Below the pieces are notes generated by a model, which saw only the letters and a list, made by a program, of their open reading frames with translations, was not told the DNA's origin and did no database searches. Positions 25,007-61,755 of a stretch of DNA of 64,000 nt are shown piece after piece. The stretch is taken from assembly GCA_017438525.1 (NCBI GenBank), contig JAFRVI010000004.1:79281-143280 (forward strand), given 5' to 3'. A program made the position numbers and the translations under genes. The DNA comes from Clostridia bacterium. GTDB taxonomy: Bacteria; Bacillota; Clostridia; Oscillospirales; RGIG8002. How positions within the stretch are numbered: position 1 is the first letter of the stretch; each line of letters begins with the position of its first letter.

Positions 25007-25036
25007 TATAACTCCTCCGGAGAAAAATATCAACTA

Positions 25037-35691: not shown

Positions 35692-35750
35692 AATCGTCCC
35701 TCCGTTCAAAGCGTTGAGAATAATTAAATGATAGTACTTAATTATAGGGT

Positions 35751-40594: not shown

Positions 40595-41716
40595 TTACTT
40601 CTTCGAGTAGAGATAGAGCAAACCGGCCGCAAGAGCAAGACCGATAAGGACCGCGATAGCGACACGCAGCGCGGATACCGGCGACTTTCCGCCGACCTTT
40701 CCGGTTTCGCCGTTGACCATGAATTGAAATATCTTCTCTTTAAATTTGAACGAAGAAAGCCATACGGGCAGCAACAGGTATTTATACTTAATATCGAAAT
40801 ACTTAGTCGCCATTCTGACGTTGTTGACGTGATCGGCGTGGTGCGCTCTGCGGACTTGATCAGTAATATCGGATTCAAGGCGGGAGGAAATGAAACCTTT
40901 TCCCTTCTCCCACGCGTCGTTGAGCCCGATGGAATAGCGCTCGGAAATGAATCCCGCTATGTATTCGGGCTTGTACTTCTTATTATTCGCGGTATCATAC
41001 GGCTCGATCGAACGAAGCGTCGCCTCGTTATAACGCGTGGTGCCGCAGACGGCCTGATCGTCTATGAAGCAGGAATAATGCCCGGAGGTGTTGTACCACG
41101 TCGTGGTTGTGTGAGTATTTCCGTTGCTGTCTGTGTATGTGTGGTCAATGCCGTAGCGGGCGGTATAGTCCGTCTCGGTCTGTGAATCGAACGTCCAGTA
41201 AGGCAGATAAACGCCTTTGAAAGATTCGGGTCGGGCGCTCTGCTTCGCTTTTGACGGGCAGAAAAGCTTTTTCTTGATCCACGCGGTGAATCTTTCGCCT
41301 GCGGTCTTCGCGTCGATCCTGAAGGGGCAAACGCCGCCCGGGGCAAGCGTGTTGACCGCGGCCTCCTCCATAACCTGATTCGAGCCGCAGTAGGGGCATA
41401 CGTCAGCTATCTGCAGCGCGTCGTAAATCGATTCGCCGCCGCAGGATTTGCAGATGACGGTCTTCTTCTCGACGCCCCAGTCGCAGTTTCCCCTTTCGGC
41501 CGCCGAGTAGAAATCCTGCTCCATGCAGCGTTCCTCGTTCGACTCATGAGGCGGTATCGCCTGCTGATGCCCGCAGTACGGACAAAGCAGTCCGCCGGAA
41601 ACCGGATCGAAATCCATAACGCCGCCGCAGGACGGACACTTCTTGTCCGTCTCTTCCCTCGTTGTCGTTTGCTGGATCACTTCGACTTCATTGTTGTACT
41701 CGTTAACGTCGCTCAC
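40595..41716 (-). CDS. Tail-anchored protein with two N-terminal zinc ribbons (function unknown)
   Basis: CPSCGG...CPYCG and CKSCGG...CPYCG motifs. A single C-terminal TM helix (AIAVLIGLALAAGLLYLY) lies 3 residues from the end. I prefer GTG 41716, 8 nt after GGAGG. The ORF-track start is the TTG at 41743. Confidence 0.65.
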   Translation of the reverse strand: MSDVNEYNNEVEVIQQTTTREETDKKCPSCGGVMDFDPVSGGLLCPYCGHQQAIPPHESNEERCMEQDFYSAAERGNCDWGVEKKTVICKSCGGESIYDALQIADVCPYCGSNQVMEEAAVNTLAPGGVCPFRIDAKTAGERFTAWIKKKLFCPSKAKQSARPESFKGVYLPYWTFDSQTETDYTARYGIDHTYTDSNGNTHTTTTWYNTSGHYSCFIDDQAVCGTTRYNEATLRSIEPYDTANNKKYKPEYIAGFISERYSIGLNDAWEKGKGFISSRLESDITDQVRRAHHADHVNNVRMATKYFDIKYKYLLLPVWLSSFKFKEKIFQFMVNGETGKVGGKSPVSALRVAIAVLIGLALAAGLLYLYSKK

Positions 41717-41757
41717 TTGGTGTTCCTCCAGACTATTTTTCAAATATTATTTATAAA

Positions 41758-46554: not shown

Positions 46555-49500
46555 TCAATCAAGACCGACGGCGATCCTCAAAACCGCCAGGGCGTCGGCA
46601 ACGGTTATTTCTCCGTCGCCGTCAAGATCAATGGCGGCTATCACTTTCTCCGCGGGAGCGTAAAGCCGCGCCGCGGCGCGGAGCGTAAGCAGCGCGTCGG
46701 AAACGGTAATGACTCCGTCGCCGTCGGCGTCGCCCCTGAGCGGAGTGGTATCGACAACGGTAAAGCTGACTTCGGTCGTGAACTCATCATATCCGTTGAC
46801 GACCTTCAGCGTATATTCGCCGGGCTCGGTAATCGGTCTGCCGGCGTAGTAGGTCTTTCCGTTCAGATACGCAATATGACCGTCATCCCAGGACGCCGCG
46901 ACAGATCCGTCATAAAGGTCGTAGGTCTTCCCTTCCTCAACGCCGGTGATCGCCGGAGCCGCAAGCGGCACGAACTCAAAGCGCGCGTCCGAAGCGGCGA
47001 ATGTTTCCGCGTAGGTCCCGGGATATCCGTAAAGCTTTACGGTACCGAGCATATTCGATATGAAATTTCTGTTCATATTCGTCATACTGCGCGGAACGTA
47101 CACTCTTTTTATAAGTCTGGCGTTGGACGAAATATACCCCTGAACGGTCTGCACTCCCTCATCAAAGATGAAGCAGCGGTTGCTGACCGTCATATAGAAA
47201 GTATTGCCCGAAACGTTTTTAAGACCGCTTCCGATCTTTATATACGACGTGCCGCGGGCGTAATAGAAAGCGTTGTATCCGAGCGTTCGGACGCTCGACG
47301 GAACGTCGATGTGCGCCAGCGACAGGCATCTGCCGAACGCGTATGTTCCTATCGATTCAAGTCCGTTCGGGAGATCGAGCTCCTCAAGCGAGGTGCATTC
47401 GTAGAAGGCGTATGCGCCGATGGTTTTCAAAGTCGACGGGAGACGGAGCTTCATGTGCAGCACGGTCTGGCCGTAGTTCTGGAACGCGTAGTCGCCTATC
47501 GCGGTCACGGGATAACCATCGATATAGTCGGGAATATAAACCGATTCGGTTCCGCACTTGGCGCCGGTTATCGTGACCTCGCCGCCGGATACCGTGTAGA
47601 AGAAATCGCGGGTAGTCGCAACATCGCTCACGCTGACGGACGCGCTCACGGAAACTTCGCCGTCGGAATCAACGAAATATACCGTGTATTCGCCTTCGGT
47701 GATATGCGTTCTCAAAAGAAGTCTGACGTAACCGTCGCCCGCGTCGTCATACGAAATCTTGAATTGATCGACGGGCATTTCGACCGGAAGCTCGCCGTTC
47801 TTTTTGATAACGACAGAGGGCTCGCACGCGCGCGAAACCTCGGCGCTTATATAAAGCCAACCGCCGCGGTATATCGAAGCGGATTCCGCGAAGGATTCGC
47901 CGTCCGCCGAAACGGATACGGTTCTGAAAGAAGCCGGAAGCGCGGTACCGGTCAGCGCGGCGGCCGCTGAAGCGACCGACTTCGCGGAAGCGTGCTTCAT
48001 AGCGTAGACCGCTTTCGCGTTCTCAAGCTCGGGCGACTGCCCGGAGCAGGCATCGATCGCGGCCTTGAGGACGGATTTGTCGACCGCCTGAGGCAGCTCC
48101 CATCTGTTGACGCAGGACGGGAAAGAATAACTCGACGTATAAACGTATTTACCGTCGGGAGTGAAGCATATCTTAGACGCGATGTGACCGTAATTGGATT
48201 GGCCGCCGGGAATCAGAGTGCTTACGTAAGTCCCGTCCGCATAGAAAAGCTTCATCGTCCTGTCAAGCGAAGCCGCGGCGATGAATCTGCCGTCCGGCGA
48301 ATACGCGACCTCGTGGATCTGTCCGGAAAAGCCGCCGAGCAGCGATACGCAGCGTCCGCTTTCAACGCCGTAAACGCGGGCGGCGCTGTCGGTGCAGGTG
48401 GTAACTATGTATTTTCCGTCCGGAGACCAGGCGAATTTCCTGACCGAGCTTTCGTTGACGGTATCGAGTCTGCGCACGGCGTTTTTACCGGCAACGCTCC
48501 AGATAACGACTTCGCCCGCTTCGTCAGAGGTCGCAAGCAGCGAACCGTCCGGAGAAAAGCGGCAGAACTGCACGGTGTTCACGTGTTCGGTCGTGAAGTG
48601 AGCGTATTCGCTCCAGTCGTCGACGTTGAAAACAAACACGCCGGCGCTCGTGGTGGTAACCGCAAGTTTGCTTCCGTCCGGCGAAAGATCGGCGGAGAGC
48701 GGGTCGCTTTCAACGAATATCTCATTTTCAAGCGCGCCGGTAGAAGCGTTGAAAACTCTGATATAATGCGCTTTAGTAACCGAGCTGTTATTGGGGTTCT
48801 GCAACGCCTGCGCACCTCCGTTAAAGCCGCCGGCGATCAGATGTTCGCCGTCTTTTGTGAAGGCGAGACAGTAATGCATAGTAGCGCCGTTGTTGATCCT
48901 GACGGGCGCTTTTAAGAAATCGGAAGTATCGTATATTACCGCGCAGCCGTTCATAGTGCCGGCCGCGAACTTTTTGCCGTCCGGAGAATACGCGGCGCTG
49001 ATAAACGCCCTGTAGTTTATCGTGGTGGGCACCGTCCGAAGGACCTCGCCCGTGCGCGGATCGAAAACGCAGAGTATGCCGGACTGATCCGCCATTATCC
49101 CCTGCGTTCCGTCCTGAGAAATATCCATCGGGAAGCTGGACATAAAGAAGTTGGAATCCCTGCCGAGATACTCGACGCCCTGCGACGTAACGGTGGAATA
49201 CTCGGAAGTGAAATCCGGCGTATCGTCTGTTCCCTGCTCGGAGCGGATATAGGCGCGGACGTAATCGACGCGGAGTTCCTTGTCGCCGTAATATCTGTCG
49301 GGATCAAGGACGGCGCTGCTGATTCCTTCGATGCCGCCGGAGGAAAGAATGATATACCTCGCGACGTCGCCGTACGCGAATTTCTTTCCGTCGTCGTCGA
49401 GATTGAGCGACATACACAGCGCACCGTCGAAATACATACGCACCTGATCGGTATCCAGCTCAACCGTATAAGTGTGATAATCGTTCGCGAGATCCTCGAA

Positions 49501-51243
49501 ATTCTCGGCGTATATATCTACGCGTTTATCAAGGTATTCAGTCCCGGCCGGATTCGTCCAGTGCAGAGTTCCGATCTGCCTGGCGTAGAGCTTGTCGCCC
49601 TGGCTGTCGTATTCGTCGGCGGTGACGGGCATTTCCATAAGGTCTATCTCGGAACGAGCCATATTCATCGAGTCGACCGGCATCATCCAGAGCGCGGGCC
49701 ACATACCGAATCCCTTCGGCATCTTGGCGCGTATCTCTACGCGTCCGTAACTTATAGCGTACTTGCCGCTGGAAAGAATATGCGGAGCGACGGACTCGTA
49801 GCCGTTATGATCTCTGTTGAGCGTTCTCAGGACGAGATCGCCGTCTTCAACGAAGGCGGTCTCTTCTGAATCGATATAAAGCGCGGTGTTTTTTCCGCCG
49901 AAGAAGAATCCTGTGTCGGCGCGCCAGATGTTAGAGTCGAGCTTGTCGCCGTCGAACTCATCGCCCCACGTCTGTACGTACCCGCCGTCGTTGACCTTGC
50001 AGACGACAAACTTCTTAAAGGAGTTGGAAGCCGTGCCTTTGACCGTCGTACCCGCGTAAGTAAGCTTCGCAACGCCGCGCACCTGTATGGTGAATTCGCC
50101 TCTTGAAACGGTGAGACCGAATTCCTGCGTCGTATCGTTATAATCGATCGTGTCATATGTAAGCACCGTCGCGGCGTTACCCATCGTCATGGCGTAGGCG
50201 GTGGCTTTGTTGATTATCCTGTAAGTCGAATTACCCGACGGGTCCGGCGTAAACTGCCAGAGCTGCGCCGGATCGCCCTCCGCCGCGGGTTCAAGCGTGA
50301 AAGCGTAGTTGTTCTGCTGGAGGGTTATTGTTACCGCTTTCGGATCATCGGTGCCGTAGGAATCAACGGAGTAGATTTTATAATAAGCGTTATCGACGAT
50401 TCCGCCTCTGGTCGTGATGCGTTCTTCGGAATATGGCGTTTTTCCGGAAATGTCGACGGTCTCGCGATAAGCGTGGAGATCCGCGATATAAAGCGTATCC
50501 GCGCCCTCACATGCGATGCGGATATAGTTCATCAGCCCGTCGGTCTCGATCCGAGCGCCGTCCGTGTCGGGAACGAACATATAATACGGGATCGTTATAT
50601 ACCCTTCGCAGTCAACAGGAATACCTGAAGCGGTAAGCGAATAGCAGCCGGCCTCGGCGCGCTTGCCTACGGTCAGAGAAACAATTGCGGGCGCGTCGGC
50701 GGATATCCAAATACGAAGTCCGTCCGTATCGAACATATCCATACCGAACGGAGAGGCACCGGAAACGCCGCCTTCAACGGAGTTGTCGTATACGATGCCG
50801 CCGTCGGAAACGATCTTAAGCGACTGCCTCGCGGCTTCCGGTTTATTCACGGCGTCAACGCTGACGACGCCGACGCTGTTTGCCATAAGCGCGATATCAT
50901 CGGCAGTGATATAATCGAACGACATAAGCCGGACGCGCTCACTGCCCTTCATCGGCGCGAGGAAGTCGACTCCGTTACACACGTCTTCCAGAAGCCCGTA
51001 AAGCGTTTCCGCGTCGGCGCTACCTTCAAACAGCGCCGCCTCCGCGCGAAGAATCCGGTCATAAAGATACTTCTCGGTCTGCTCGCTGTTGTCTTTATAA
51101 AGCAGCGAATGCGCGAACTCAATCGCTTCCGAAAGCTGCGCACGGAGCGCGTCGGTATCACCTTCGGCGTGTATCCACGCGGAAGGAAACAGCGAAGCCA
51201 GCATGGCGATTATTATAAGCGCGGTAATCGTCTTTTTAACCAT
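46555..51243 (-). CDS. Giant secreted multidomain protein, paralogue 4 of 4 (same architecture)
   Basis: Collinear with paralogue 3. GH16 motif EIDLME is at 49633-49650 and the dockerin at 46558-46737. ATG 51243 (GGGGTGA RBS) is preferred over the GTG at 51252. Confidence 0.85.
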   Translation of the reverse strand: MVKKTITALIIIAMLASLFPSAWIHAEGDTDALRAQLSEAIEFAHSLLYKDNSEQTEKYLYDRILRAEAALFEGSADAETLYGLLEDVCNGVDFLAPMKGSERVRLMSFDYITADDIALMANSVGVVSVDAVNKPEAARQSLKIVSDGGIVYDNSVEGGVSGASPFGMDMFDTDGLRIWISADAPAIVSLTVGKRAEAGCYSLTASGIPVDCEGYITIPYYMFVPDTDGARIETDGLMNYIRIACEGADTLYIADLHAYRETVDISGKTPYSEERITTRGGIVDNAYYKIYSVDSYGTDDPKAVTITLQQNNYAFTLEPAAEGDPAQLWQFTPDPSGNSTYRIINKATAYAMTMGNAATVLTYDTIDYNDTTQEFGLTVSRGEFTIQVRGVAKLTYAGTTVKGTASNSFKKFVVCKVNDGGYVQTWGDEFDGDKLDSNIWRADTGFFFGGKNTALYIDSEETAFVEDGDLVLRTLNRDHNGYESVAPHILSSGKYAISYGRVEIRAKMPKGFGMWPALWMMPVDSMNMARSEIDLMEMPVTADEYDSQGDKLYARQIGTLHWTNPAGTEYLDKRVDIYAENFEDLANDYHTYTVELDTDQVRMYFDGALCMSLNLDDDGKKFAYGDVARYIILSSGGIEGISSAVLDPDRYYGDKELRVDYVRAYIRSEQGTDDTPDFTSEYSTVTSQGVEYLGRDSNFFMSSFPMDISQDGTQGIMADQSGILCVFDPRTGEVLRTVPTTINYRAFISAAYSPDGKKFAAGTMNGCAVIYDTSDFLKAPVRINNGATMHYCLAFTKDGEHLIAGGFNGGAQALQNPNNSSVTKAHYIRVFNASTGALENEIFVESDPLSADLSPDGSKLAVTTTSAGVFVFNVDDWSEYAHFTTEHVNTVQFCRFSPDGSLLATSDEAGEVVIWSVAGKNAVRRLDTVNESSVRKFAWSPDGKYIVTTCTDSAARVYGVESGRCVSLLGGFSGQIHEVAYSPDGRFIAAASLDRTMKLFYADGTYVSTLIPGGQSNYGHIASKICFTPDGKYVYTSSYSFPSCVNRWELPQAVDKSVLKAAIDACSGQSPELENAKAVYAMKHASAKSVASAAAALTGTALPASFRTVSVSADGESFAESASIYRGGWLYISAEVSRACEPSVVIKKNGELPVEMPVDQFKISYDDAGDGYVRLLLRTHITEGEYTVYFVDSDGEVSVSASVSVSDVATTRDFFYTVSGGEVTITGAKCGTESVYIPDYIDGYPVTAIGDYAFQNYGQTVLHMKLRLPSTLKTIGAYAFYECTSLEELDLPNGLESIGTYAFGRCLSLAHIDVPSSVRTLGYNAFYYARGTSYIKIGSGLKNVSGNTFYMTVSNRCFIFDEGVQTVQGYISSNARLIKRVYVPRSMTNMNRNFISNMLGTVKLYGYPGTYAETFAASDARFEFVPLAAPAITGVEEGKTYDLYDGSVAASWDDGHIAYLNGKTYYAGRPITEPGEYTLKVVNGYDEFTTEVSFTVVDTTPLRGDADGDGVITVSDALLTLRAAARLYAPAEKVIAAIDLDGDGEITVADALAVLRIAVGLD

Positions 51244-51299
51244 ATCAGTCACCCCGTTAAATCAGTCTTTCAATCCGTTCGGTTAAAGCGGAAAAAGAA

Positions 51300-52043
51300 T
51301 CACTCGCATCTGCCGTAAATATCGCACGCTTTATGTATGCAGTCGCGGAGGATGGCGAATTCCTCATCTGAAATATTATCCGGCTTGAAGGTCGAATCGT
51401 AAATCGAACCGCCGGTCACGACCTCAAAGAAGACGCCTCCAGCGAGATACTGCCCTTTAGCGTTTGCGTGGAAGCCGTCCTCGCAGAGAGTATCGCCGAT
51501 AGCGCTCGCTCTGGCAAGCTGAAACGCTTCGCCCGACGGAACTATATGCTTCGCGCCGATCGCTTCGGCCGCGCGGAAGTACGCTTCTTTTACACACTTG
51601 AACATATACTCCTGATCGCAGTTGAAATCAGGGAAATGCTCGTGTGTTGAATCGTGCTGATACGCCCAGGTCTGATGTATCATTATCTCCGCGTTCGGGA
51701 CGCGTTTGTGAACGTAGTTGTAAACGTAATCGAGATACGGCTGGTAGGTATCGAAGTTACCGGCAAGTCCGCTGACCTGCTGAAGAGAAATATGAGTCCA
51801 GTCGTCGCTCTCAAGAGCGGTATTTATATCACAGGAACCGTTGCTTCTTCTGCGAGTATGCTCATAACCGTATACCTCCGCGCCGGTCTCGAAAAAGTTC
51901 TTATGCATCTGCAGACTGCATCCGCCGTAGCACAGATCGCCGACCTTGAGCTTCATCGGGCTGCCGTCCGCGATGCTCTGCAGATATGTGTAAGCGTTCC
52001 ATGAAAAGCTGTTTCCGATCATCAGGAGTTTTCTTTCTTCCAT
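51300..52043 (-). CDS. Cytoplasmic SGNH/GDSL-like hydrolase-fold protein (DUF4886-like)
   Basis: No signal peptide. The block I-like motif is LLMIGNSFS at the N-terminus and the block V-like motif is DGFHAN near the C-terminus. Size is 247 aa. Confidence 0.6.
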   Translation of the reverse strand: MEERKLLMIGNSFSWNAYTYLQSIADGSPMKLKVGDLCYGGCSLQMHKNFFETGAEVYGYEHTRRRSNGSCDINTALESDDWTHISLQQVSGLAGNFDTYQPYLDYVYNYVHKRVPNAEIMIHQTWAYQHDSTHEHFPDFNCDQEYMFKCVKEAYFRAAEAIGAKHIVPSGEAFQLARASAIGDTLCEDGFHANAKGQYLAGGVFFEVVTGGSIYDSTFKPDNISDEEFAILRDCIHKACDIYGRCE

Positions 52044-52221: not shown

Positions 52222-55200
52222 TCAATACTCAACTTCGACGTGTTTTTCTCCTCCGTCGAGGCGGATGAAATCGACCTCGACCCCGTCGATAACAATTCGT
52301 TTTACACCCGTGTTCCTTGCAAGAATCACGACTTCGGTCCCTTCCAGCTTCGCTTTCACCTCAAAATCCCGCCACGAGTCCGGAACGCGAGGCGAAATAT
52401 AAAGCTTATCGCCGCGCTTTTTCAACCCGAGCATCTCCTCTATGACAGCGCGGTAATACCACGCAGCCGCGCCGGTGTAGATCGTCCAGCCGCCTCTGCC
52501 TTCACGATGCGGCGCGGTGTAAATATCCGCGGCCAGAAAATACGGTTCGGTCTTATATCGCGGCTCGAACGAATGCGTTATCGGCCCGATCATCTCGAGA
52601 ATGTCCGACCCGTCGTTACGCTTCCCGAGTCTGAACGCCGCCATTGCGAGCCACACGGCCGCATGAGTGTACTGTCCGCCGTTTTCTCTGATTCCTGCGG
52701 GATAACGCTTGATATATCCGACTTCTTTCCTCGTATTGCGGAATGGAGGATCAAAAAGACGGACCATGTTTTCGTCTTTATCGACCAGGCGTTTGATTGC
52801 CGTTTCAACGGCGATCGCGGAACGCTTTTCGTCAAGTCCCGCAAAAACGGCAAAGCTCTGCGGAAGACTGTCTATGCGGCATTCGGCGCAATCTTCGCTT
52901 CCGAGTTTCGCGCCGTCGTCATGATAGCCGCGTATATACCTATCGCTTTCCCAGCAGTTTTCCGACGCGGCCTTCAGAGACGCGCTCCTTTTGCGCAGCG
53001 TTTCGGCGAACGGGGCGTCACCGAATGCGCCGGCTATCGCCGCGAATCTCTCCATTACGACGGCGGCGAACATAGTAAGCCAAACGCTTTCTCCCTTCCC
53101 CTTTACGCCGACCTTGTTCATACCGTCGTTCCAATCCCCGGAGCCGAACAGCAGTAATCCGTGACGCCCGACACGGTATCCTCTCTCAAGCGCGCGTTTA
53201 CAGTGCTCATACAAACTTCCCGCTCCGGACACAACCGGAGAAATATATCTCTCTGACTCGTTGGGCGAAAGATTGTCACCTTTAATAAAGTTTACGATTT
53301 TGCTTAATATTTCAGCGTCATCAGTCACGGAAACGTATTCGGAAACCGCATAAGGAAGCCAGAAAAGATCGTCCGAGCAGCGCGTTCTCACTCCCTTGAA
53401 TCCACCCGCTTCCTTCGGAAGTTTATGCCACCAGTGCAGCACGTCGCCCTCCTCAAACTGCGCGGACGCCGCCTTGAGAATATGCGCTTTCGCAAGCTGC
53501 GGATCGGAGTACAACAGCGCGCAGACATCCTGAAGCTGATCGCGGAAACCGTAAGCGCCGGAGTTTTGCGAAAAGCCCGTTCTGCCGTAGACGCGCGATA
53601 TCTTCGTCTGATAAGGCAAATAGAAGTTTATAAGCCGGTCAAGGTTTTCCGACGGCGTTCGTATCTCGAACGCCGTATCGCCTCCCGACGCTCGCTTTTC
53701 ACTTTCCTGCTTCCGCTCCGCAAAAAGAAGATGCGGATACGCGGCCGCGAGTTTGCCTCCGGCGGCGGAGAGGTAAAACCACACCGTCGCGCCTTCCCCC
53801 GCTTTCAGCCGAAGCGCCGTTACCGCGGCGGCGCACGCGCGTTCCTCAATACCGCTTTTCGTGTCCCAGCGGCCGGAATAGAAGCTGTCTTTGCCGGTCA
53901 CGAAGCATACGTCCGCCGAACACGAAAGGCAAGCGACAGTCCCTTGCCACTCGTCATTATACGGATTCTCCGCAAAGAGCGCGCCGCCGCGCTCGTGAAC
54001 CTTCGCCATACTCTGCGCGCAATCGTTCGGGAACGGCTCCGCGCAGTACGCGAGCTTCAGATCGACCGCATCGGAAGAACGGTTGCGAAGCGTCACGCGA
54101 ATGATCTTCACGGGCAGCTTATCATGAACGGCGACGCGCGTCCGCGCTTCCAGCTTTCCGTTCACGACGCAATACTCGGCGAATCCCTTTCCGAAGCGAG
54201 CCAGACTTCCGCGTATCAGGTCGCGGTATTCTCCGCCGTACTCGGCGATGAGCCGTTCTCCTGTGTTGTCGCTCATATAGTCGTTGCTCCACGGAGTGAT
54301 CTGATTCAGCCGAGAATTGAGATAATACGTGAAACCAAGCGACGAGTCGGACACAAGCGTTCCAAACGACTTGTTGGCAAGCGGAAAGCACCACGGAAGA
54401 GGACTGCTGCTCTTTTGAGGGCACGCGGTAAACGCGTCCTTTTCAAACCATCCGCCCGGGACTGAGCTCTCTATCTTTTCCGTTTCCGTCAGGGGCTCGC
54501 CCGTAATGACGGAAATACCCCTTCCGCGCGGTTCCGGAGCTTCCTCTTCCGTCCCGCAGACCTCACAGTAGACGCTCGCCGCTTTAAGCATCCTCGCCTT
54601 TTCAAATCCGACCTTCTTTTCGTCAATGAGATACACGTTTTTGCAATCCGGCGCAGCGGCCTCTTCAAGAAGCAAACGGAGACCGCCGTCATACGCTCCG
54701 CCCTCACCGTAAATAAAGCAAAGGTCGTATTTCGCGCCCTTGATCGCCGCGGCTTTGTGCGCCTTCAGATGCGTCCGCACGCGGCCGATATCCTCTTCCC
54801 CAGAAACGACGCAGGTAACTATAGGTTCGTCGCCCGAAACCGACATGCTCCATAAATCCTTCCTGCCGAGCGCGTTCAACCTCGCGGCTTCCGCGGCAGC
54901 ACGCGTTTTCGGCATATCGAAAAAGACTCTCGGCAGGATCGTGTTGAGCAGGCGGTTTTCATCCGCGCCGCAGTCAATCGAAGCCGACATGTTTCCTGCC
55001 GCTTCCCAGGAGGATTTCATCATATTATGAATCCCCTCCTTTTTTATAAGGCGGAATCGCGAGAGAGCTTCTTCCCTGCTTCTGCCGGCGCATTGGATGA
55101 ATACGAACGTCTCGTTTTCGCCACCGCGTAAAGCGAACCTCGTCCTGAACGCTGCGCAAGGTATTACCGGCGTGCCGTCGGCGCAGGAAAACTCCGAAGA

Positions 55201-58200
55201 AAACGCCTCACCGAGCGAGAATATCCCGACGCCCTTTTTCAAGACGGCGCTTCTGTCGGTTTCAAAGGCAAACTCACGGTCGCCGGCAAATCCGAACGCC
55301 GCGCACGCCTCCTCCTCGACGTCTCCGCGCCGCCACACAAGCAGACACTTCTCCGCCTCTCGATATTCGCACATGATGAAAAGGTCGGAAAAAGCCGGAT
55401 GCGCCGAATGCCGGCGGTGCTCGCGAAGCACCGGTTCCGCGTATATCATCAGCTCCCCGTCCTTTTTACGCCTGTCGGTATTGCCGACTTTTATCACGCG
55501 GATTTCCGCGGGTATCCTTCCGTGTACGTTTACGCTCATGGCGGCTTCGAGCCCATCGTGAACGGCGGTGAAAACCGCCGAAGCGGACGTGAACTCCGCG
55601 CGGCGCGACACGCCGTCGCGTATCGGATCTGCGGTGATCGCGAACGGCGTATTTCCGCTTTCGCGCAGCACAACGTACACGCCGGACGGAGTCAACCTCA
55701 GGTCGCGCTTTCGAACGGTCATATCTATACCGCCCCACTTCGAAAAACCGCTTCCGCCGTCGGTTATAACGGTGGAAAATTCGCCGTTGGAAAGCAGCAG
55801 CGCGCGCGGACGGGACGGATCGGTCTCCGAACATATCATCCCTTCTTCGGGCCGCTTTTTCAATTTATATTTCGCATCCACGCTCACACCCTTATATAGT
55901 GAAACGCCGTCATATATCGCTTCCTCGAGCAGCTTTTGCGCGGTGCGCATATCGGCGTCGCGCATAAATCGCTTCTGCATAACGTTTCCGAGAAGGCAGT
56001 TCGCCACGGAAACAAGCGACATACCTGTATGATGCGCCATATAACTCTTGACTATCGAGAAGCCGCCGCCCGTTCTCGAAGCAGTGAAGTCGACCGCCTC
56101 ATACAGTCCGAATTCTCCGTTCATCCCCATATTGACGAGCCGCTTAAGGTTCGCTATCGAATCCGCAGGCGAAAACGCAAGCGTGAGAAACGTTGAATAC
56201 GGCGAGATAACGAGTTCTTCGTCAAGCCCGCGTTTCAGGCCAAGCTTCTGCACGCCGAACGCTTTGTACTGGTAATTCTGCCCCATATCGAACGAATAAA
56301 AACCGCTTTCGGAAACTCCCCAGGGCAGCTTCAGCGCGGCGGTGCGCTTTTTCTGGCAGTAAAGCGCGTAACGCAGCGCTTCGTCGGTAAGCGAATCCGA
56401 AACGACCGGCAGCAGCAGATGCGGCATAAAGTATTCGAACATCGTTCCCGTCCAGGATAAAGGACCGACGTATCCGTCCGCGCCGGCGAAAAGTCTGCCG
56501 AGCATTCCCCAGTGGCGTTTATCCGCGACCTTTTTGGCTATCGCGTAATAGCTCGTCATACGCGCTTCGCTCATCAGTATGTCGTACATATTGTTTCCGA
56601 ACGCGCCGTCGGCGGCGTCATAGCCGATATAGAAGAGCTTGCGGCGTTGGTTGTAAAGTTTCGAGATATCCGCCTCGGCCGTCAGCTTTTCGCACAGCGC
56701 GGCGACTCCGCCGAGCTCGGAACATTCCCAGAGGTAGTCTTTCACGCCCTCCTTCAGCGCGGTAAGGCAGCATAACAGATTTCCGCTGTCGACGGTGGAA
56801 ACGTATTCCGGACGCAGCGGTTCGGCGGTCTTGATGTCGTACCAGTTATATAGATTTCCGTGCCATTTCGGGATACTTTTCAGCGTTTCAAGCGTCGCGG
56901 AAGCGCGGCGGCAAAGCTCGATACTGTCAATAAAACCGAGGTCTCTCGCCGCGAGCACACACAGAAGATAGAGCCCTATATTTGTCGGCGAAGTCCGCAT
57001 AGCAACGCGGTACGGCGAATACTGCACGTTATCCGGCGGCAGATAATTCGTCTCTTCGGTCACGTACTTGTCGAAAAAGCGCCACATTGCCGCGGCAAAA
57101 GAATACAACAGCTCCTCGTCTTCCTCGTCGATGTCCCGTCCTTTGCTGATCGCCGGACGGGATATTTCGCAAAAAACCGCCGGCGCGATCATCCAGAGCG
57201 CACCGAGAACGGCGAGCGGCAGCCGTCCGGAAAGCAGCGAAGCGACGCCGAGCACCGCGGTAAAGCGAAAATAGAGATAATAGTCGATTATTCCGTTACG
57301 TTTGCCGGTCTCGGCTTCCGCGGCGGTCAGCCATTCAAGCAGATTTTTGTGGGAAACCGTCATGCGCCAGAGCGACTTGGACAACTCACAGAACGAAACC
57401 GCCGCGAGCTGCGGAAGCATCATAACGTTAAGCGTTATCCTGGCGCAGCCGGCAAGAAACGCGGGTATCCCGCGCGTAATATACCTGCGGAATGCTATCC
57501 GCGGTTTAAACAGTCCGCGCACCGCCGCGACAGCGTCGCCGGCGGAAACCGAAACAAGCGCAAGAGCAAGCAGCGGTATCCTCAGCGGCGCGGATACAAA
57601 AACGCATACTCCGACAGCAATGAAAACCGACAGAGGCGTAATACCGCGCCTTATATTGTCAAACAGCTTGAATCTGTCCGACAGCCCGAACTCATTGCGG
57701 ACCCTCTCTCCGCCTTCGTTCTTACGATGCTTCTTCAAAAAGAACGCGTTCTGGAAATCACCTCTTATCCAGCGTGACTGTCGCGTCAGCCACGATTTAA
57801 CGGTCGTCGGGAACCCGTCCGACAGCTCAGTGCCGGAAACGGTGCACGCCCGCAAAACGCCGCCCTCGATAACGTCGTGACTCAGCACCTTGTTATTCGG
57901 GAATGCTCCGTCGACGACTGCGTAATACGCTTTAACGTCGATCAATCCTTTGCCCGTAAACAATCCGTCGCCGAAAAGATCTCTGTAAAGATCCGCGCCC
58001 GAGCCGCCATAGCTGTGCATCCCGCCCATTCCGGCGAAGACTCGCGAAAACAAACTGCGCGACGACGATTCGATATCAGTAGTCAACCTTGGTACCGCGA
58101 TCCCGAATCCGTTTATCACACGATTGTCAACTACTTCCGCCTTGTTGAGTGGATGCTCCAAAACCGCCGTCAGTTCGGCTGCGGCGTTGATGGAAAGCGA

Positions 58201-59625
58201 AGTGTCCGCATCCAGTGTAAGCAAATAATCGCTTCCGACTACACCTTTCAGGTCTCCGGTCAGCGAAGCGAAATCACATACGCCGGTATTGATATAGCGC
58301 ACGAATTCCGTAATAGCTCCGCGTTTGCGTTCGCGCCCCATATATTTGCCTTCTCCGCCGGAAAAAGTACGCTTTCGCACCGCGGCGAAGAAACCGCCGC
58401 CGAACTCGTTGTTGAGTTTGCGGATTTCATTCTCGAGCACAGAGAGAAGATGTGTATCCTCCGGACGCGTCGCCGTCGCGCTTTCCTTAAAATCCGCGAG
58501 AAGCCCGCATCTGAGCACGCCTCCGGAAAGCCGCACCCGAAGCAGATTCTTCGCAAGCTTTTTAACTTGATCCGCGGACGTAATAAGGCACGATACCGCG
58601 ACCGTCGTTCTGACGTCGCGCGTGATTCTCTCCGGATCGAGCGAGCACACATAGCGGCGTTTTACAAATGACGACGTTACGTTATCCTGCACCGCACACC
58701 AGATAGCCCAAAGCGGAACGGGCAACAGCAGGGTGACGGCCGCGTTTTTCGTCAGTAATGCGAGAATCGTGAGAATAACAAAAGGCGCAGCACAGTATAG
58801 CGCGACATATACTTTCGCGCCGACGCCGCCGCGCTTCGGGATTAGGTACAGCCCGACGTGTTTTTCGCGTTTTCCGCCTGAAGCGGATTCGGCCTTTTTC
58901 AGCGCATTCTCCGCGAATTCCGCCTCGCTTATTCCCTCGCGCCGCGCGCCAAGCGCCACGCAAGCGCGGTAATACTTCTTCGTATCATCGCTCATATCCG
59001 CATATATACCTGCAGGATCGCGTTTCAACAGTGCGTCCGAAACGCTCAACCTTTCTATGCATTCGGACATATCCGCGCCTGACATCACGCGGAGAGTCCC
59101 GACACATCCCGATATCAGCTCCGCGCTGCCGCCGTCCGAAGAAGCAATCGCCGCACATTCCTTCGCGATCGCTTCCGTCACCGCGGCGGAAAGCATATCG
59201 CGAAACACGGAAAGCTCCGCGTTTGAAAGTATATACTTCGTCTGGACGCCCGACAAAAACTCCTCTATCTCGCCGGGTCCGGCCTTCCCCGCGGCGCGAA
59301 GCAGCGAGGCGGCAATGTGATACACAACCGGCAGTCCGTCTATTCCGGTCGGAAGCGGATCGGTGTTTTTCAAACCGGCGGCGGCCGACCTGCCTTCCCT
59401 GTCGATTAGATAATAGTTATCACAAAGCCATTCGCGCGCTGCTCCGTTTTTTGTCGCAGGAAGCGAGCCGAGTAAGGCCTTTCTGTAAGTCGCGCCTATC
59501 AGCTTCAGCCGCGAAAGCGTAAGTCGCCGCAGCGCAGCGGCGTTTGTATTTCGGCACGCGGAACTTGTGATATCCAACCCCGACCCCGCAAGGAACAGTT
59601 TGTTTTCTTTCATTTTATTTGACAT
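52222..59625 (-). CDS. Cyclic beta-1,2-glucan synthase-like giant membrane protein (GT84-type glycosyltransferase + central alpha/alpha-barrel region + C-terminal GH94-type phosphorylase)
   Basis: 2,467 aa. The N-terminal EWLCDNYYLI motif is present. There are six TM helices in a 2+4 arrangement. GT motifs are LTLDADT, LSHDVIEGG and RQSRWIRGD (about 57736-58623). The C-terminal third has GDWNDGMN (53125-53139) and GGWTIYTGAAAWYYRAV, typical of GH94 phosphorylases. Confidence 0.8.
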   Translation of the reverse strand: MSNKMKENKLFLAGSGLDITSSACRNTNAAALRRLTLSRLKLIGATYRKALLGSLPATKNGAAREWLCDNYYLIDREGRSAAAGLKNTDPLPTGIDGLPVVYHIAASLLRAAGKAGPGEIEEFLSGVQTKYILSNAELSVFRDMLSAAVTEAIAKECAAIASSDGGSAELISGCVGTLRVMSGADMSECIERLSVSDALLKRDPAGIYADMSDDTKKYYRACVALGARREGISEAEFAENALKKAESASGGKREKHVGLYLIPKRGGVGAKVYVALYCAAPFVILTILALLTKNAAVTLLLPVPLWAIWCAVQDNVTSSFVKRRYVCSLDPERITRDVRTTVAVSCLITSADQVKKLAKNLLRVRLSGGVLRCGLLADFKESATATRPEDTHLLSVLENEIRKLNNEFGGGFFAAVRKRTFSGGEGKYMGRERKRGAITEFVRYINTGVCDFASLTGDLKGVVGSDYLLTLDADTSLSINAAAELTAVLEHPLNKAEVVDNRVINGFGIAVPRLTTDIESSSRSLFSRVFAGMGGMHSYGGSGADLYRDLFGDGLFTGKGLIDVKAYYAVVDGAFPNNKVLSHDVIEGGVLRACTVSGTELSDGFPTTVKSWLTRQSRWIRGDFQNAFFLKKHRKNEGGERVRNEFGLSDRFKLFDNIRRGITPLSVFIAVGVCVFVSAPLRIPLLALALVSVSAGDAVAAVRGLFKPRIAFRRYITRGIPAFLAGCARITLNVMMLPQLAAVSFCELSKSLWRMTVSHKNLLEWLTAAEAETGKRNGIIDYYLYFRFTAVLGVASLLSGRLPLAVLGALWMIAPAVFCEISRPAISKGRDIDEEDEELLYSFAAAMWRFFDKYVTEETNYLPPDNVQYSPYRVAMRTSPTNIGLYLLCVLAARDLGFIDSIELCRRASATLETLKSIPKWHGNLYNWYDIKTAEPLRPEYVSTVDSGNLLCCLTALKEGVKDYLWECSELGGVAALCEKLTAEADISKLYNQRRKLFYIGYDAADGAFGNNMYDILMSEARMTSYYAIAKKVADKRHWGMLGRLFAGADGYVGPLSWTGTMFEYFMPHLLLPVVSDSLTDEALRYALYCQKKRTAALKLPWGVSESGFYSFDMGQNYQYKAFGVQKLGLKRGLDEELVISPYSTFLTLAFSPADSIANLKRLVNMGMNGEFGLYEAVDFTASRTGGGFSIVKSYMAHHTGMSLVSVANCLLGNVMQKRFMRDADMRTAQKLLEEAIYDGVSLYKGVSVDAKYKLKKRPEEGMICSETDPSRPRALLLSNGEFSTVITDGGSGFSKWGGIDMTVRKRDLRLTPSGVYVVLRESGNTPFAITADPIRDGVSRRAEFTSASAVFTAVHDGLEAAMSVNVHGRIPAEIRVIKVGNTDRRKKDGELMIYAEPVLREHRRHSAHPAFSDLFIMCEYREAEKCLLVWRRGDVEEEACAAFGFAGDREFAFETDRSAVLKKGVGIFSLGEAFSSEFSCADGTPVIPCAAFRTRFALRGGENETFVFIQCAGRSREEALSRFRLIKKEGIHNMMKSSWEAAGNMSASIDCGADENRLLNTILPRVFFDMPKTRAAAEAARLNALGRKDLWSMSVSGDEPIVTCVVSGEEDIGRVRTHLKAHKAAAIKGAKYDLCFIYGEGGAYDGGLRLLLEEAAAPDCKNVYLIDEKKVGFEKARMLKAASVYCEVCGTEEEAPEPRGRGISVITGEPLTETEKIESSVPGGWFEKDAFTACPQKSSSPLPWCFPLANKSFGTLVSDSSLGFTYYLNSRLNQITPWSNDYMSDNTGERLIAEYGGEYRDLIRGSLARFGKGFAEYCVVNGKLEARTRVAVHDKLPVKIIRVTLRNRSSDAVDLKLAYCAEPFPNDCAQSMAKVHERGGALFAENPYNDEWQGTVACLSCSADVCFVTGKDSFYSGRWDTKSGIEERACAAAVTALRLKAGEGATVWFYLSAAGGKLAAAYPHLLFAERKQESEKRASGGDTAFEIRTPSENLDRLINFYLPYQTKISRVYGRTGFSQNSGAYGFRDQLQDVCALLYSDPQLAKAHILKAASAQFEEGDVLHWWHKLPKEAGGFKGVRTRCSDDLFWLPYAVSEYVSVTDDAEILSKIVNFIKGDNLSPNESERYISPVVSGAGSLYEHCKRALERGYRVGRHGLLLFGSGDWNDGMNKVGVKGKGESVWLTMFAAVVMERFAAIAGAFGDAPFAETLRKRSASLKAASENCWESDRYIRGYHDDGAKLGSEDCAECRIDSLPQSFAVFAGLDEKRSAIAVETAIKRLVDKDENMVRLFDPPFRNTRKEVGYIKRYPAGIRENGGQYTHAAVWLAMAAFRLGKRNDGSDILEMIGPITHSFEPRYKTEPYFLAADIYTAPHREGRGGWTIYTGAAAWYYRAVIEEMLGLKKRGDKLYISPRVPDSWRDFEVKAKLEGTEVVILARNTGVKRIVIDGVEVDFIRLDGGEKHVEVEY

Positions 59626-59714
59626 AACACGCTCCGGGATAATTTAGTACGCATTACGCTTATTTTGCTACGTTTTTACGGAATAATACCGACATGTATG
59701 CTAAGATATTTATG

Positions 59715-59743
59715 TTGACATATTACCTCGAAATGTGTATAAT
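59715..59743 (+). promoter_or_regulatory. Consensus sigmaA promoter for the alpha-oxoamine synthase/SDR operon
   Basis: TTGACA (59715-59720), a 17-nt spacer, then TATAAT (59738-59743). Both hexamers are perfect. A GGAGG RBS lies at about 59760 and the ATG at 59772. Confidence 0.62.
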
Positions 59744-59771: not shown

Positions 59772-60956
59772 ATGCCGTTATTCAAAAAGTGCAGGGATTT
59801 CCATCTTGTAAAAGATATCAAAGCGATGGGGATTTATCCATATTTCCACGAACTTGAATCAAAGCAGGACATCGAGGTAATGATGGAGGGCAAGCGCCGC
59901 ATAATGCTCGGCTCCAATAACTACCTCGGTCTCACCGTTCATCCCGAAGTCATAGAAGCCGGCGTAAAAGCGCTCGAGAAGTACGGCTCCGGCTGCTCCG
60001 GCTCGCGCTTCCTCAACGGCACGCTCGACCTGCACAATCAACTTGAGCACGAACTCGCTGAATTCGTCGGCAAGGAAGAGTGCGTGACATTCTCCACCGG
60101 CTTCCAGTCAAACCTCGGCATTATTTCCGCGATTGCCGGCAAAGGCGACTACATATTCAACGACCGCGAGAATCACGCGAGCATTTACGACGCCTGCAAG
60201 CTCAGCTACGCCGAAACGATCCGCTACAAGCACAACGATATGGCAAGTCTCGAGAAGAAGCTGAGTGAGGTCCCGCTCGAAGCCGGGAAACTCATCGTCA
60301 CCGACGGCGTTTTCAGCATGAGCGGCGACATGTGCAAGCTTCCCGAGATCGTCGCGCTCGCCGAGAAGTATAAGGCGCGCGTCATGGTCGACGACGCCCA
60401 CGGACTCGGAGTCCTCGGCGAAGGCGGACGCGGCACGGCAAGCTATTTCGGACTCACCGACAAGGTCGATATCATAATGGGCACGTTCAGCAAATCGCTG
60501 GCGAGTCTCGGCGGCTATATGGCGGCGAGCAGCGAGGTCTGCGAATTCGTCAGACACAGCTCCCGTCCGTTCATATTCAGCGCCTCCATCCCGCCCGCGT
60601 GCTGCGCGACCGCGATAAAGGCGCTTGAGATTATGAAACGCGAACCCGAACGCGTCGAACGTCTCGGAGATCTCGCGGAATACCTGCGCGACGGGATGAA
60701 GAAGCGCGGTCTCGCTATCCGCGACACCGACAACAAGCGCGTCCCGATCGTCCCCTTTTACACCTACGAACAGGTGCGCACGCTTACCATCGGCAAGATC
60801 CTTTTTGACGAAGGCGTTTACGTCAACCCCGTTCTGCCGCCGGCGACGACTCCTACGGAGTGCCTGCTTCGCACGAGTCTGATGGCGACGCACAACGAGG
60901 AGATAATCGACGAAGCCCTCGATATCATCAAGAGAGTGGTTGAAGAGAATGCCTGA
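59772..60956 (+). CDS. PLP-dependent alpha-oxoamine synthase, serine-palmitoyltransferase-like (BioF/KBL/SPT family)
   Basis: GIYPYFHELES, NNYLGL, GSGCSGSRFLNGT, DDAHG and GTFSKSLASLGGY motifs. The PLP lysine codon is at 60492-60494. Size is 394 aa. Confidence 0.8.
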   Translation: MPLFKKCRDFHLVKDIKAMGIYPYFHELESKQDIEVMMEGKRRIMLGSNNYLGLTVHPEVIEAGVKALEKYGSGCSGSRFLNGTLDLHNQLEHELAEFVGKEECVTFSTGFQSNLGIISAIAGKGDYIFNDRENHASIYDACKLSYAETIRYKHNDMASLEKKLSEVPLEAGKLIVTDGVFSMSGDMCKLPEIVALAEKYKARVMVDDAHGLGVLGEGGRGTASYFGLTDKVDIIMGTFSKSLASLGGYMAASSEVCEFVRHSSRPFIFSASIPPACCATAIKALEIMKREPERVERLGDLAEYLRDGMKKRGLAIRDTDNKRVPIVPFYTYEQVRTLTIGKILFDEGVYVNPVLPPATTPTECLLRTSLMATHNEEIIDEALDIIKRVVEENA

Positions 60957-61755
60957 CGTAAAGGTCGTTGCAATAACCGGCGCTTCAAGCGGGATAGGCC
61001 TTTGCGCCGCGAAGATGTTCGCGGACCGCGGTTACAAGGTCTATTGCCTCAGCCGCACCGCGCCGAAGGATGAACGCATAAAGCATATACCCGCCGACGT
61101 TTCCGACGAAAGCGCCGTCATCGCCGCGTTCGAACGCATAAAGAGCGAAACCGGGCGGCTCGACGTCCTCGTCAACAACGCCGGATTCGGCATTTCCGGA
61201 GCGACCGAGCTGACCGACACCGCCGCGGCGAAGCGGCAGTTTGACGTCAACTTCTTCGGGCAGTTCATCTGTGCGAAGCACGCTGCTCCCATGCTCCGCG
61301 AAACGAAGGGCGCGATTGTCAACGTCAGCTCCGCTGCGGCGATATTCTCAATTCCATATCAGGCGTTCTACTCCGCATCCAAATCCGCGATAAACTCGCT
61401 CACCCTCGCGATGAGAAGCGAGCTGAAGCCCTTCGGCGTCCGCGTCAGCGCCGTCATGCCAGGCGACGTCCGCACCGGCTTCACGGCCGCGAGGATAAAG
61501 GACGACGGCGAGAAGTCGCTCTATTCGGACACGATAAAGGCGTCCGTGGCGGTTATGGAGAAGGACGAGATAAACGGCATGCCGCCGGAAAAAGTCGCGA
61601 AAATCATCGTTAAACTCGCCGAGAAGCGCAGACCGAAGCCACTGACCGTCGCGGGCGGAAAATACAAGCTCTTCGCGGCGCTCAACAAGCTCCTGCCGAC
61701 CGGGCTCGTAAATTCCATAGTCGGCTCGATGTATATCAAAAAAGAAAAGAAATAA
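60949..61755 (+). CDS. Classical short-chain dehydrogenase/reductase (SDR)
   Basis: ITGASSGIG (TGxxxGxG), NNAG, and S...YSASK catalytic motifs. ATG 60949 overlaps the upstream stop by 8 nt. The ORF-track start is the TTG at 60940. Confidence 0.85.
   Translation: MPDVKVVAITGASSGIGLCAAKMFADRGYKVYCLSRTAPKDERIKHIPADVSDESAVIAAFERIKSETGRLDVLVNNAGFGISGATELTDTAAAKRQFDVNFFGQFICAKHAAPMLRETKGAIVNVSSAAAIFSIPYQAFYSASKSAINSLTLAMRSELKPFGVRVSAVMPGDVRTGFTAARIKDDGEKSLYSDTIKASVAVMEKDEINGMPPEKVAKIIVKLAEKRRPKPLTVAGGKYKLFAALNKLLPTGLVNSIVGSMYIKKEKK

Follow-up and report, generated by a model that had tools for sequence, protein, structure and literature searches.

Cgs, the synthase of cyclic beta-1,2-glucan, makes these rings with a degree of polymerization of about 17–25 from UDP-glucose. 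The structures of the enzyme from Agrobacterium tumefaciens (AtCgs; 8RF0, 8RF9, and 8RFE in the Protein Data Bank (PDB)) show six compactly arranged transmembrane (TM) helices without an export channel. Y694 on the IF1-homology (IF1h) loop of AtCgs is the autoglucosylated primer tyrosine, and a 4-helix motif in the cyclization domain (CY) mediates a back-to-back dimer (Sedzicki et al. 2024, PMC10901819). Cgs from Brucella abortus is of the same type. In the proteobacterial system, a dedicated ABC exporter (Cgt, ChvA, or NdvA) carries the product to the periplasm. The enzyme from Thermoanaerobacter italicus (TiCGS) is the founding member of family GH189, and the structure of its cyclization domain (TiCGSCy, 8WY1) has been determined (Tanaka et al. 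2024, PMC10834661). Here, we describe a gene, cgs, located at 52222–59625 on the minus strand of a 64-kb stretch of DNA from a Clostridia bacterium (contig JAFRVI010000004.1; hereafter, the window). The gene very probably encodes a single-polypeptide synthase of cyclic beta-1,2-glucan in a compact form, consisting of an N-terminal domain (NTD), TM1–TM2, a GT84 domain, TM3–TM6, a GH189 cyclase, and a GH94 phosphorylase. We base this assignment on the observed homology, the conservation of functional residues, the retained folds, purifying selection, and a map of insertions and deletions.

The open reading frame (ORF) begins with ATG, has a GGAG sequence 8 nt 5' of the start codon, and encodes 2,467 amino acids (aa) over 7.4 kb without an internal stop. 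A preliminary description of the window, made from the sequence, had assigned the gene to the Cgs/NdvB/ChvB type and quoted eight motifs. The ORF and all eight motifs are real, and each motif occurs exactly once in the translation: EWLCDNYYLI (aa 65–74; 59404–59433), LDADT (aa 471–475), LSHDVIEGG (aa 581–589), RQSRWIRGD (aa 615–623), WHGNLYNWYD (aa 921–930), GTMFEYFMPHLLLP (aa 1060–1073), GDWNDGMN (aa 2163–2170), and GGWTIYTGAAAWYYR (aa 2378–2392). The position given for GDWNDGMN, 53125–53139, has to be corrected because it covers only the first five codons; the true span is 53116–53139. In public databases, the protein cluster and its relatives are named "DUF3131 domain-containing protein", "hypothetical protein", or "GH36-type glycosyl hydrolase domain-containing protein" (NCBI MBQ6552148.1 and MBO4934134.1).

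The best PDB match of the protein is AtCgs (8RF0/8RF9; E = 0, 1088 bits with phmmer), which is far beyond chance. Three stretches are collinear with 8RF0 in the phmmer alignment: aa 314–965 with AtCgs 460–1123, aa 980–1650 with AtCgs 1260–1945, and aa 1739–2443 with AtCgs 2068–2811. The proposed architecture is borne out by this collinearity over aa 314–2443 and by the match of the NTD at the level of fold. The two proteins have the same domain order and the same residues in the glycosyltransferase (GT), primer, CY, and phosphorylase sites, and they share only ~30–35% identity. The Pfam matches (Glycoamylase and DUF3131, both on the cyclase barrel; GH94 supersandwich, PF06165, 1.7e-55; GH94 catalytic, PF17167, aa 1986–2400, 1.4e-87) are found in the expected order. 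The deposited chain of 8RF0 keeps the native numbering, with D624 and D626 within LDADT; therefore, the residues discussed in PMC10901819 and PMC10834661 could be mapped. Residues D527, R586, D624, D626, Y694, D739, R773, R776, D1104, E1300, D2393, and D2528 of AtCgs are known to be important from mutagenesis or structure (PMC10901819). Each of them has an identical counterpart in the present protein, as do E1356, E1400, E1442, H1536/H1537, and W1109 of TiCGS.

The GT84 domain (approximately aa 320–660; 57646–58668, minus strand) was aligned to residues 460–800 of AtCgs, and the GT region as a whole (aa 314–965) aligns to the GT84 region of AtCgs with 348 bits. The UDP-coordinating residues D527 and D624/D626 (the DxD motif) of AtCgs correspond to D378 and D472/D474, the catalytic base D739 to D584, and the RW motif R773-W774 to R618-W619. 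R586 and R776 correspond to R433 and R621, respectively. The primer tyrosine Y694 on the IF1h loop corresponds to Y539 (codon at 58009–58011, minus strand), and a tyrosine occupies this position in 120 of 120 homologs. The processive GT domain that had been recognized from its motifs is therefore supported residue by residue.

The CY domain, an (alpha/alpha)6 barrel of family GH189 (aa 826–1262; 55840–57150, minus strand), matches TiCGSCy with an E-value of 4e-117. W928, E1064, and H1198/H1199 correspond to W1109, E1400, and H1536/H1537 of TiCGS, and D946 corresponds to D1104 of AtCgs. The cyclase acid/base is E1020 (E1356 in TiCGS and E1300 in AtCgs), and the nucleophile is E1106 (E1442 in TiCGS). 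An AF2 model of this domain (pLDDT 80, pTM 0.86) has its best structural matches in 8WY1 (E = 3e-28, TMq 0.82) and Cgs, followed by the GH144, GH162, and newer beta-1,2-glucanase families. The helical barrel noted earlier can thus be identified as the cyclization domain. TiCGSCy is the closest solved relative of this domain, likewise originates from a Firmicute, and has the same catalytic residues. The endo-beta-1,2-glucanases of GH144 and GH162 (CpSGL, 5GZH, and TfSGL, 6IMU) have the same (alpha/alpha)6 barrel and share the general-acid position (TMq 0.60–0.70 to the CY model). However, they are inverting hydrolases without an E1106-type nucleophile, and they carry no fused GT or phosphorylase.

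The GH94-type phosphorylase half (GP; aa 1263–2467; 52225–55839, minus strand) carries the PF06165 and PF17167 matches. It contains two supersandwich repeats, a putative Rossmann-like insert (approximately aa 1585–1705), and the catalytic domain (aa 1986–2400). The insert has a beta-alpha-beta-like sequence pattern and may correspond to the Rossmann-like subdomain that lies between GP1 and GP2 in AtCgs (1847–2012). The phmmer alignment spans AtCgs 1847–1945 and is followed by a gap, in which aa 1650–1739 face AtCgs 1945–2068. D2029 corresponds to D2393 of AtCgs, and D2167, within GDWNDG, corresponds to the catalytic acid D2528. The phosphorylase elements RENGGQYTH and YTG are present and conserved. 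R2313, H2321, and T2384, which we take to form the phosphate site of the GH94 domain, are conserved across the homolog alignment.

The NTD (aa 1–270; 58816–59625, minus strand) contains the EWLCDNYY motif and is predicted to be a reduced version of the Cgs scaffold that lines the primer chamber. A phmmer search of the PDB with the N-terminal 330 aa gave no match at E-values up to 10. An AF2 model of aa 1–272, built from a 21-sequence alignment, has a pLDDT of 90.6 and a pTM of 0.87. Its only significant PDB matches in Foldseek are the Cgs structures 8RF9 and 8RFE (E = 2e-5, TMq 0.71 and 0.67, 16% identity). The model indicates that the Cgs NTD fold is kept in the reduced domain.

The membrane segments were located by Kyte-Doolittle hydropathy with a 19-residue window and a threshold of 1.6. 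Three hydrophobic stretches of 36–40 residues, each long enough for a helical hairpin, occur at positions homologous to those in Cgs. Predicted hairpin 1 (TM1–TM2, aa 274–313; 58687–58806) has hydropathy peaks of 2.35 and 1.73, and its position fits the Cgs topology (PMC10901819). Hairpins 2 (TM3–TM4, aa 663–701; 57523–57639) and 3 (TM5–TM6, aa 787–822; 57160–57267) follow, all on the minus strand. The distance from TM4 to hairpin 3 is ~85 residues, compared with 76 in AtCgs (PMC10901819, Fig. 1 legend). By hydropathy, these stretches are compatible with the two plus four TM helices that had been proposed.

The alignment of 120 homologs comprises 100 proteins shorter than 2,600 aa and 20 longer ones (16 long or intermediate proteins and four compact ones with other insertions). 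The 21 mapped functional positions, covering the GT84, primer tyrosine, GH189, and GH94 sites, are invariant or nearly so in this alignment. The GT84 site is invariant in the 100 compact proteins, and the exceptions among the 20 longer homologs are one D378A and one R433K. The ratios of nonsynonymous to synonymous substitution rates (dN/dS) against three orthologs are 0.11–0.125 overall, 0.04–0.08 for the cyclase, and 0.17–0.20 for the NTD. Every part of the gene is under purifying selection, and the CY domain is the most constrained part, with values down to 0.04.

The protein had been described as a few hundred residues shorter than the proteobacterial enzymes. Indeed, the deposited AtCgs chain has 2,818 residues, and the shortfall of ~350 residues is confined to discrete accessory modules that the alignment to Cgs locates. 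The 4-helix motif of CY (~120–160 aa in the characterized Cgs) is absent in the alignments to both AtCgs and 8WY1; a short linker (aa 966–980; 56686–56730, minus strand) is found at its site. In these alignments, residues 965/969 join chain residues 143/302 of 8WY1, and residues 965/980 join AtCgs 1123/1260. TiCGS has the long architecture, and the ~155 residues of its insert (chain residues 143–302) are replaced by ~4–15 residues here. In the homologs, the cyclase insert segment measures 21–26 aa in compact forms versus 113–224 aa in long forms. In the NTD, one contiguous block of ~95–105 residues is missing after aa ~158, and an N-terminal extension of ~35 residues is also missing. Smaller losses amount to ~20 residues before TM1 and ~35–60 residues over the GP1/RFL/GP2 segments. 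The dimerization motif is absent; therefore, the compact form is predicted not to assemble into the back-to-back dimer of the Agrobacterium type.

The compact architecture, without the cyclase insert and with a short NTD, is more common than any other in the closest relatives. It was found in 101 of the 120 best matches, which are typically ~2,330–2,550 aa long; 15 have the long architecture. The remaining four are intermediates with a long NTD and no cyclase insert, and they come from Caloramator, [Clostridium] ultunense, and two metagenome contigs. The intermediates from Caloramator sp. (P0109) and [Clostridium] ultunense (P0115), with 2,666–2,731 aa in this group, have only 29–36 aa in place of the CY insert and share the catalytic residues. 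However, they keep the long NTD (~308 aa in the segment corresponding to aa 65–270) and cluster with the long forms. A neighbor-joining tree built from distances places the long forms with the intermediate ones and divides the compact forms into two groups.

Two further features of the homologs were observed. A strongly hydrophobic segment of ~20 residues, with which the N-terminal extension begins and which resembles an extra TM helix or signal anchor, is present in most of the long Firmicute homologs (P0097, P0101, P0112, and P0088/P0091) and in the intermediates P0105 and P0109. The compact forms lack this segment, as do P0115, P0116, and the Acidobacteria-type long homolog P0114. An otherwise compact protein of 2,630 aa (P0039, JGI) has a ~200-residue insertion in GP, consisting of two near-identical acidic repeats, so that the segment corresponding to aa 1760–1985 has 441 rather than ~225 residues.

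From the A. tumefaciens and T. italicus homologs, a reaction scheme can be proposed, in which catalysis, product identity, ring size, topology, and product fate are predicted by analogy. The three TM hairpins would anchor the protein, with all of the catalytic domains in the cytoplasm. GT84 would use UDP-glucose, with D378, D472, and D474 binding UDP, D584 acting as the base, and R618-W619 providing the RW motif. It would first glucosylate Y539 on the IF1h loop to form a covalent primer in the chamber lined by the NTD, and it would then lengthen this primer as a beta-1,2-linked chain. The GH94 domain would trim the non-reducing end by phosphorolysis to give glucose-1-phosphate, using D2167 as the acid and R2313, H2321, and T2384 as the phosphate site. 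Finally, the GH189 barrel would cut the chain by way of a glycosyl-enzyme intermediate at E1106, with E1020 as the acid/base, and close it into a ring. The cyclic glucan would be released to the cytoplasm, and the primer would be regenerated.

Several points weigh against this assignment. The characterized enzymes, TiCGSCy, which is the sole Firmicute fragment, and Agrobacterium Cgs, both have the 4-helix motif that is absent here, and there is no compact form among them. Part of the NTD is also deleted in the compact form. The TM topology is derived solely from hydropathy. There is no Pfam match for the GT region and no NCBIfam family for the whole protein; therefore, membership in GT84 was established by alignment to the Cgs structure. 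In addition, there is no Cgt/ChvA/NdvA-type exporter in the window, and a Pfam census of 94 ORFs flanking compact homologs detected no ABC exporter.

Some of these points can also be read as signs of a different product. The same three modules might normally yield linear or protein-bound beta-1,2-glucan or sophoro-oligosaccharides, or they might mainly turn over imported beta-1,2-glucan by transglycosylation and phosphorolysis; with the 4-helix motif and a portion of the NTD gone, the handling of the chain would have changed. TiCGSCy gives linear or cyclic products depending on substrate length alone (PMC10834661), and the glucan-handling surfaces (the NTD block and the segments around the RFL/GP linker) are shortened in the compact form. 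The lack of a nearby exporter for a cyclic product would also fit. However, the conserved GT84 site and primer tyrosine are hard to reconcile with a purely catabolic role. In CY, the most constrained domain of the protein, the nucleophile, the acid/base, E1064, and the His pair are invariant, and the 4-helix motif has been assigned to dimerization, not catalysis. Moreover, the soluble domains are predicted to be cytoplasmic, and no transporter is adjacent; therefore, they would not contact an imported polymer unless a transporter exists. We consider a different normal product unlikely.

A rival reading, part of which had been raised in the preliminary description, is an ordinary GH94 phosphorylase (for cellobiose, cellodextrin, or chitobiose) joined to membrane and helical domains of other origin, or a GT from another family; the likeness to Cgs would then be superficial. 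The names in the databases agree with this, since Pfam recognizes only GH94, Glycoamylase, and DUF3131, with no GT, and the NCBI clusters are named after DUF3131 or GH36-type glycosyl hydrolases. However, the GP of Cgs (AtCgs 2285–2811) matches the C-terminal 558 residues with 416 bits, and cellobiose, chitobiose, and lactose phosphorylases match them with at most 147 bits; therefore, the idea of an ordinary phosphorylase fused to something else fails, and the GH94-like region groups with Cgs. None of the refuting conditions in the preliminary description that computation could address was found to hold. Stand-alone GH94 enzymes, such as the 1,2-beta-oligoglucan phosphorylases of Lachnoclostridium phytofermentans (SOGP, 5H3Z) and Listeria innocua (Lin1839) and the cellobiose and chitobiose phosphorylases, have the same catalytic fold and the same Asp in GDWNDG. 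They are soluble catabolic enzymes of ~800–1,100 aa, whereas GT and cyclase modules accompany the phosphorylase in the present membrane protein of 2,467 aa, and 5H3Z is only a weak match (E = 1.6e-5). The collinear homology to Cgs, the Cgs fold of the NTD model, and the alignment of the GT catalytic residues and RW motif with GT84 also make this reading extremely improbable. Equally remote is the idea that the gene is decaying, a long-form Cgs in origin that has lost its function along with its modules, as the ~350 missing residues and several internal deletions might suggest, because the frame is open over its entire length, most of the closest homologs have the same architecture, every domain is under purifying selection, the 21 functional residues are conserved, and the deletions lie in accessory modules, with both modeled domains folding with high confidence.

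The family as a whole is distributed more widely than the "few Firmicutes" of the preliminary description. Relatives were found in at least 598 species-level genomes of many phyla, among them Paenibacillus, Acidobacteriota, Planctomycetota, Gemmatimonadota, Chloroflexota, and Bacteroidota, and none of the species-level representatives scanned has a relative above 38% identity. The named carriers of the compact form belong mostly to Clostridia/Oscillospiraceae, and metagenome-assembled genomes (MAGs) of Ruminococcaceae and Acutalibacteraceae are also among them. Isolates among the carriers include Clostridiaceae NSJ-31, Oscillospiraceae NSJ-54, Hydrogenoanaerobacterium, and Clostridium methylpentosum DSM 5476. 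A long-form homolog of 2,922 aa was observed on a contig binned as a MAG of the archaeon Methanothrix sp. (L057, 5952–13793); a binning artifact or horizontal transfer is possible. We found no report of cyclic beta-1,2-glucan from Clostridia or spores in the literature that was searched, in which Firmicute GT84 proteins are mentioned only in CAZyme tables, and a 2025 review contains no discussion of the Gram-positive distribution.

The gene neighborhood was surveyed by BLAST clustering of 855 neighboring ORFs and by the Pfam census of the 94 immediate neighbors. No beta-1,2-glucanase, GH3 enzyme, or regulator recurs among them. Recurrent synteny is limited to an M16 peptidase pair, lgt, and folD, and to spoVA or gerA genes. 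In the window, no exporter gene of the chvA/ndvA/cgt type adjoins cgs. A single pair of ABC exporter genes is present there, at 1713–5374, 47 kb from cgs. It was considered as a Cgt/ChvA homolog and rejected, because its two proteins reach only 345 and 329 bits with the glucan ABC transporter model (cut-off, 733) and 276 and 236 bits with the chvA model (cut-off, 585). The pair is a generic type IV ABC exporter with ABCB1 and TM287/288 as its best PDB matches.

In all six loci of the close clade (54–100% identity), a DUF4886 gene and a giant gene of the GH16/WD40/dockerin type come after cgs. In distant compact loci, cgs is followed by the M16 peptidase pair, lgt, and folD (~9–10 loci). The DUF4886 gene of the window (51300–52043, minus strand; 247 aa; PF16227, E = 3e-69) lies 178 bp downstream of cgs. 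Its product has no signal peptide, its N-terminal LLMIGNSFS resembles block I of SGNH enzymes, and its only PDB relative is the uncharacterized 4I8I. It is a possible partner of cgs and could modify the glucan.

The 5' neighbor of cgs is variable in the close clade. In the window, a gene for a serine palmitoyltransferase (Spt)-like protein (59772–60956, plus strand; NF047600, 551 bits, below the cut-off of 640) is divergent from cgs and is followed by a gene for a KdsR-like 3-ketodihydrosphingosine reductase (60940–61755, plus strand; NF049977, 227 bits against a cut-off of 400). The pair has a perfect TTGACA-17-TATAAT promoter at 59715–59743. The same pair adjoins cgs in loci L001 and L089, and a his operon is found instead in L092. 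The pair could serve in sphingoid-base synthesis in a spore former of the Clostridia.

Downstream of cgs, four paralogous secreted proteins of ~1,565–1,600 aa are encoded at 26145–30854, 30913–35709, 41758–46500, and 46555–51252, all on the minus strand. The latter two have long identical stretches in common, and both end in a dockerin-like repeat that was recognized by eye and is not among the Pfam matches. The protein encoded at 46555–51252 contains GH16, a WD40 beta-propeller, and BspA-type LRR_5. Amid the paralogs lies a gene for a protein with six CBM4_9 domains, an EEP domain, and a dockerin (35751–39698), and further EEP phosphatase-like genes are found at 25037–26107 and 39753–40586. 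A 382-aa protein encoded at 40595–41743 (minus strand) has several zinc-ribbon-like CxxC pairs and ends in a hydrophobic helix, with no match in Pfam or NCBIfam. The paralog block separates lgt/folD (23223–25033) from cgs, whereas these genes are close together in the distant relatives.

The window encodes SpoIVA at 124–1620 (three Pfam domains, E = 1e-112) and several dockerin proteins, and the NCBI identical-protein cluster is named "[Clostridia bacterium]"; therefore, "Gram-positive spore former", the earlier wording, is a reasonable description of the host. Such a spore former of the class Clostridia is presumably single-membraned and has no periplasm for the product, unlike Agrobacterium. 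In some other compact loci, sporulation operons adjoin cgs. The gerA-gerB-gerC genes lie 31–36 bp 5' of cgs in the same orientation in Clostridiaceae NSJ-31 and Hydrogenoanaerobacterium (L004, 6210–9969, and L006, 4201–7964). Directly 5' of cgs and co-oriented with it, spoVAC-spoVAD occur in at least four loci (L007, L012, L023, and L026), and only a spoVAD remnant is found at this position in L008 (7436–7843). These five loci are of the Ruminococcaceae/Acutalibacteraceae/Oscillospiraceae type, and L026 also has a SpoVT-like gene upstream. In Bacillus subtilis, the gerABC and spoVA operons are expressed in the forespore as part of the sigma-G regulon. Two different operons of the forespore type 5' of cgs in two subclades give a suggestive but weak link to spores. 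In the clade of the window itself, no sporulation gene adjoins cgs.

One tentative reading is that cyclic beta-1,2-glucan is retained in the cytoplasm of endospore-forming Clostridia, perhaps in the forespore or spore, as a protectant against osmotic stress, desiccation, or crowding, and that the expression of compact Cgs is tied to sporulation. It is proposed because no exporter is nearby, the domains and release site are predicted to be cytoplasmic, and gerABC and spoVA genes are adjacent in some loci. We give it a low probability.

Candidate promoter elements of cgs were located at 59661–59689 (minus strand) by aligning six orthologous upstream regions. An octamer, GTATTATT (59682–59689), is kept in all six of them with the consensus GTAT(T/G)ATT, ~55–60 nt 5' of the cgs start, although the upstream genes differ among the six orthologs. 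After ~12–13 nt, it is followed by a CA(C/T)AnA(A/C)T-like block, which is degenerate in the window as AGCAAAATA (59661–59669). The spacing of the octamer and the block resembles that of sigma-E promoters, and the resemblance is weakest in the window itself. The motif CA(C/T)AnA(A/C)TA was found upstream in three of 27 compact loci, compared with 1.2% of background windows. A CATACAT sequence in the window, which resembles a sigma-E/K −10 element, was rejected as a sporulation promoter because it is not conserved in the five orthologous upstream regions. The assignment of a sigma factor is inconclusive; therefore, the promoter elements were not used as evidence.

The compact architecture does not appear in the papers that were consulted. 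The family and its presence in Firmicutes were already known; therefore, the finding is solid and only moderately surprising. All that is known about the mechanism of cyclic beta-1,2-glucan synthesis was learned from the long forms, the Agrobacterium and Brucella Cgs, and from one domain of T. italicus. The compact form keeps all of the catalytic elements, drops the dimerization motif and part of the NTD scaffold, and is widespread and unannotated. Natural variation thus presents a smaller core that is sufficient for the conservation of the machine, which may be useful for structural work and for the engineering of cyclic glucans. It also predicts that the back-to-back dimer would be dispensable. 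The gap in annotation is evident from the naming of the cluster after DUF3131, with no NCBIfam model that recognizes Cgs. The compact form raises the question of what role a cyclic glucan released into the cytoplasm would play in gut anaerobes that form spores, presumably have a single membrane, and possess neither a periplasm nor an obvious exporter. This role could be tested in the cultured relatives Clostridium methylpentosum DSM 5476, NSJ-31, and NSJ-54.

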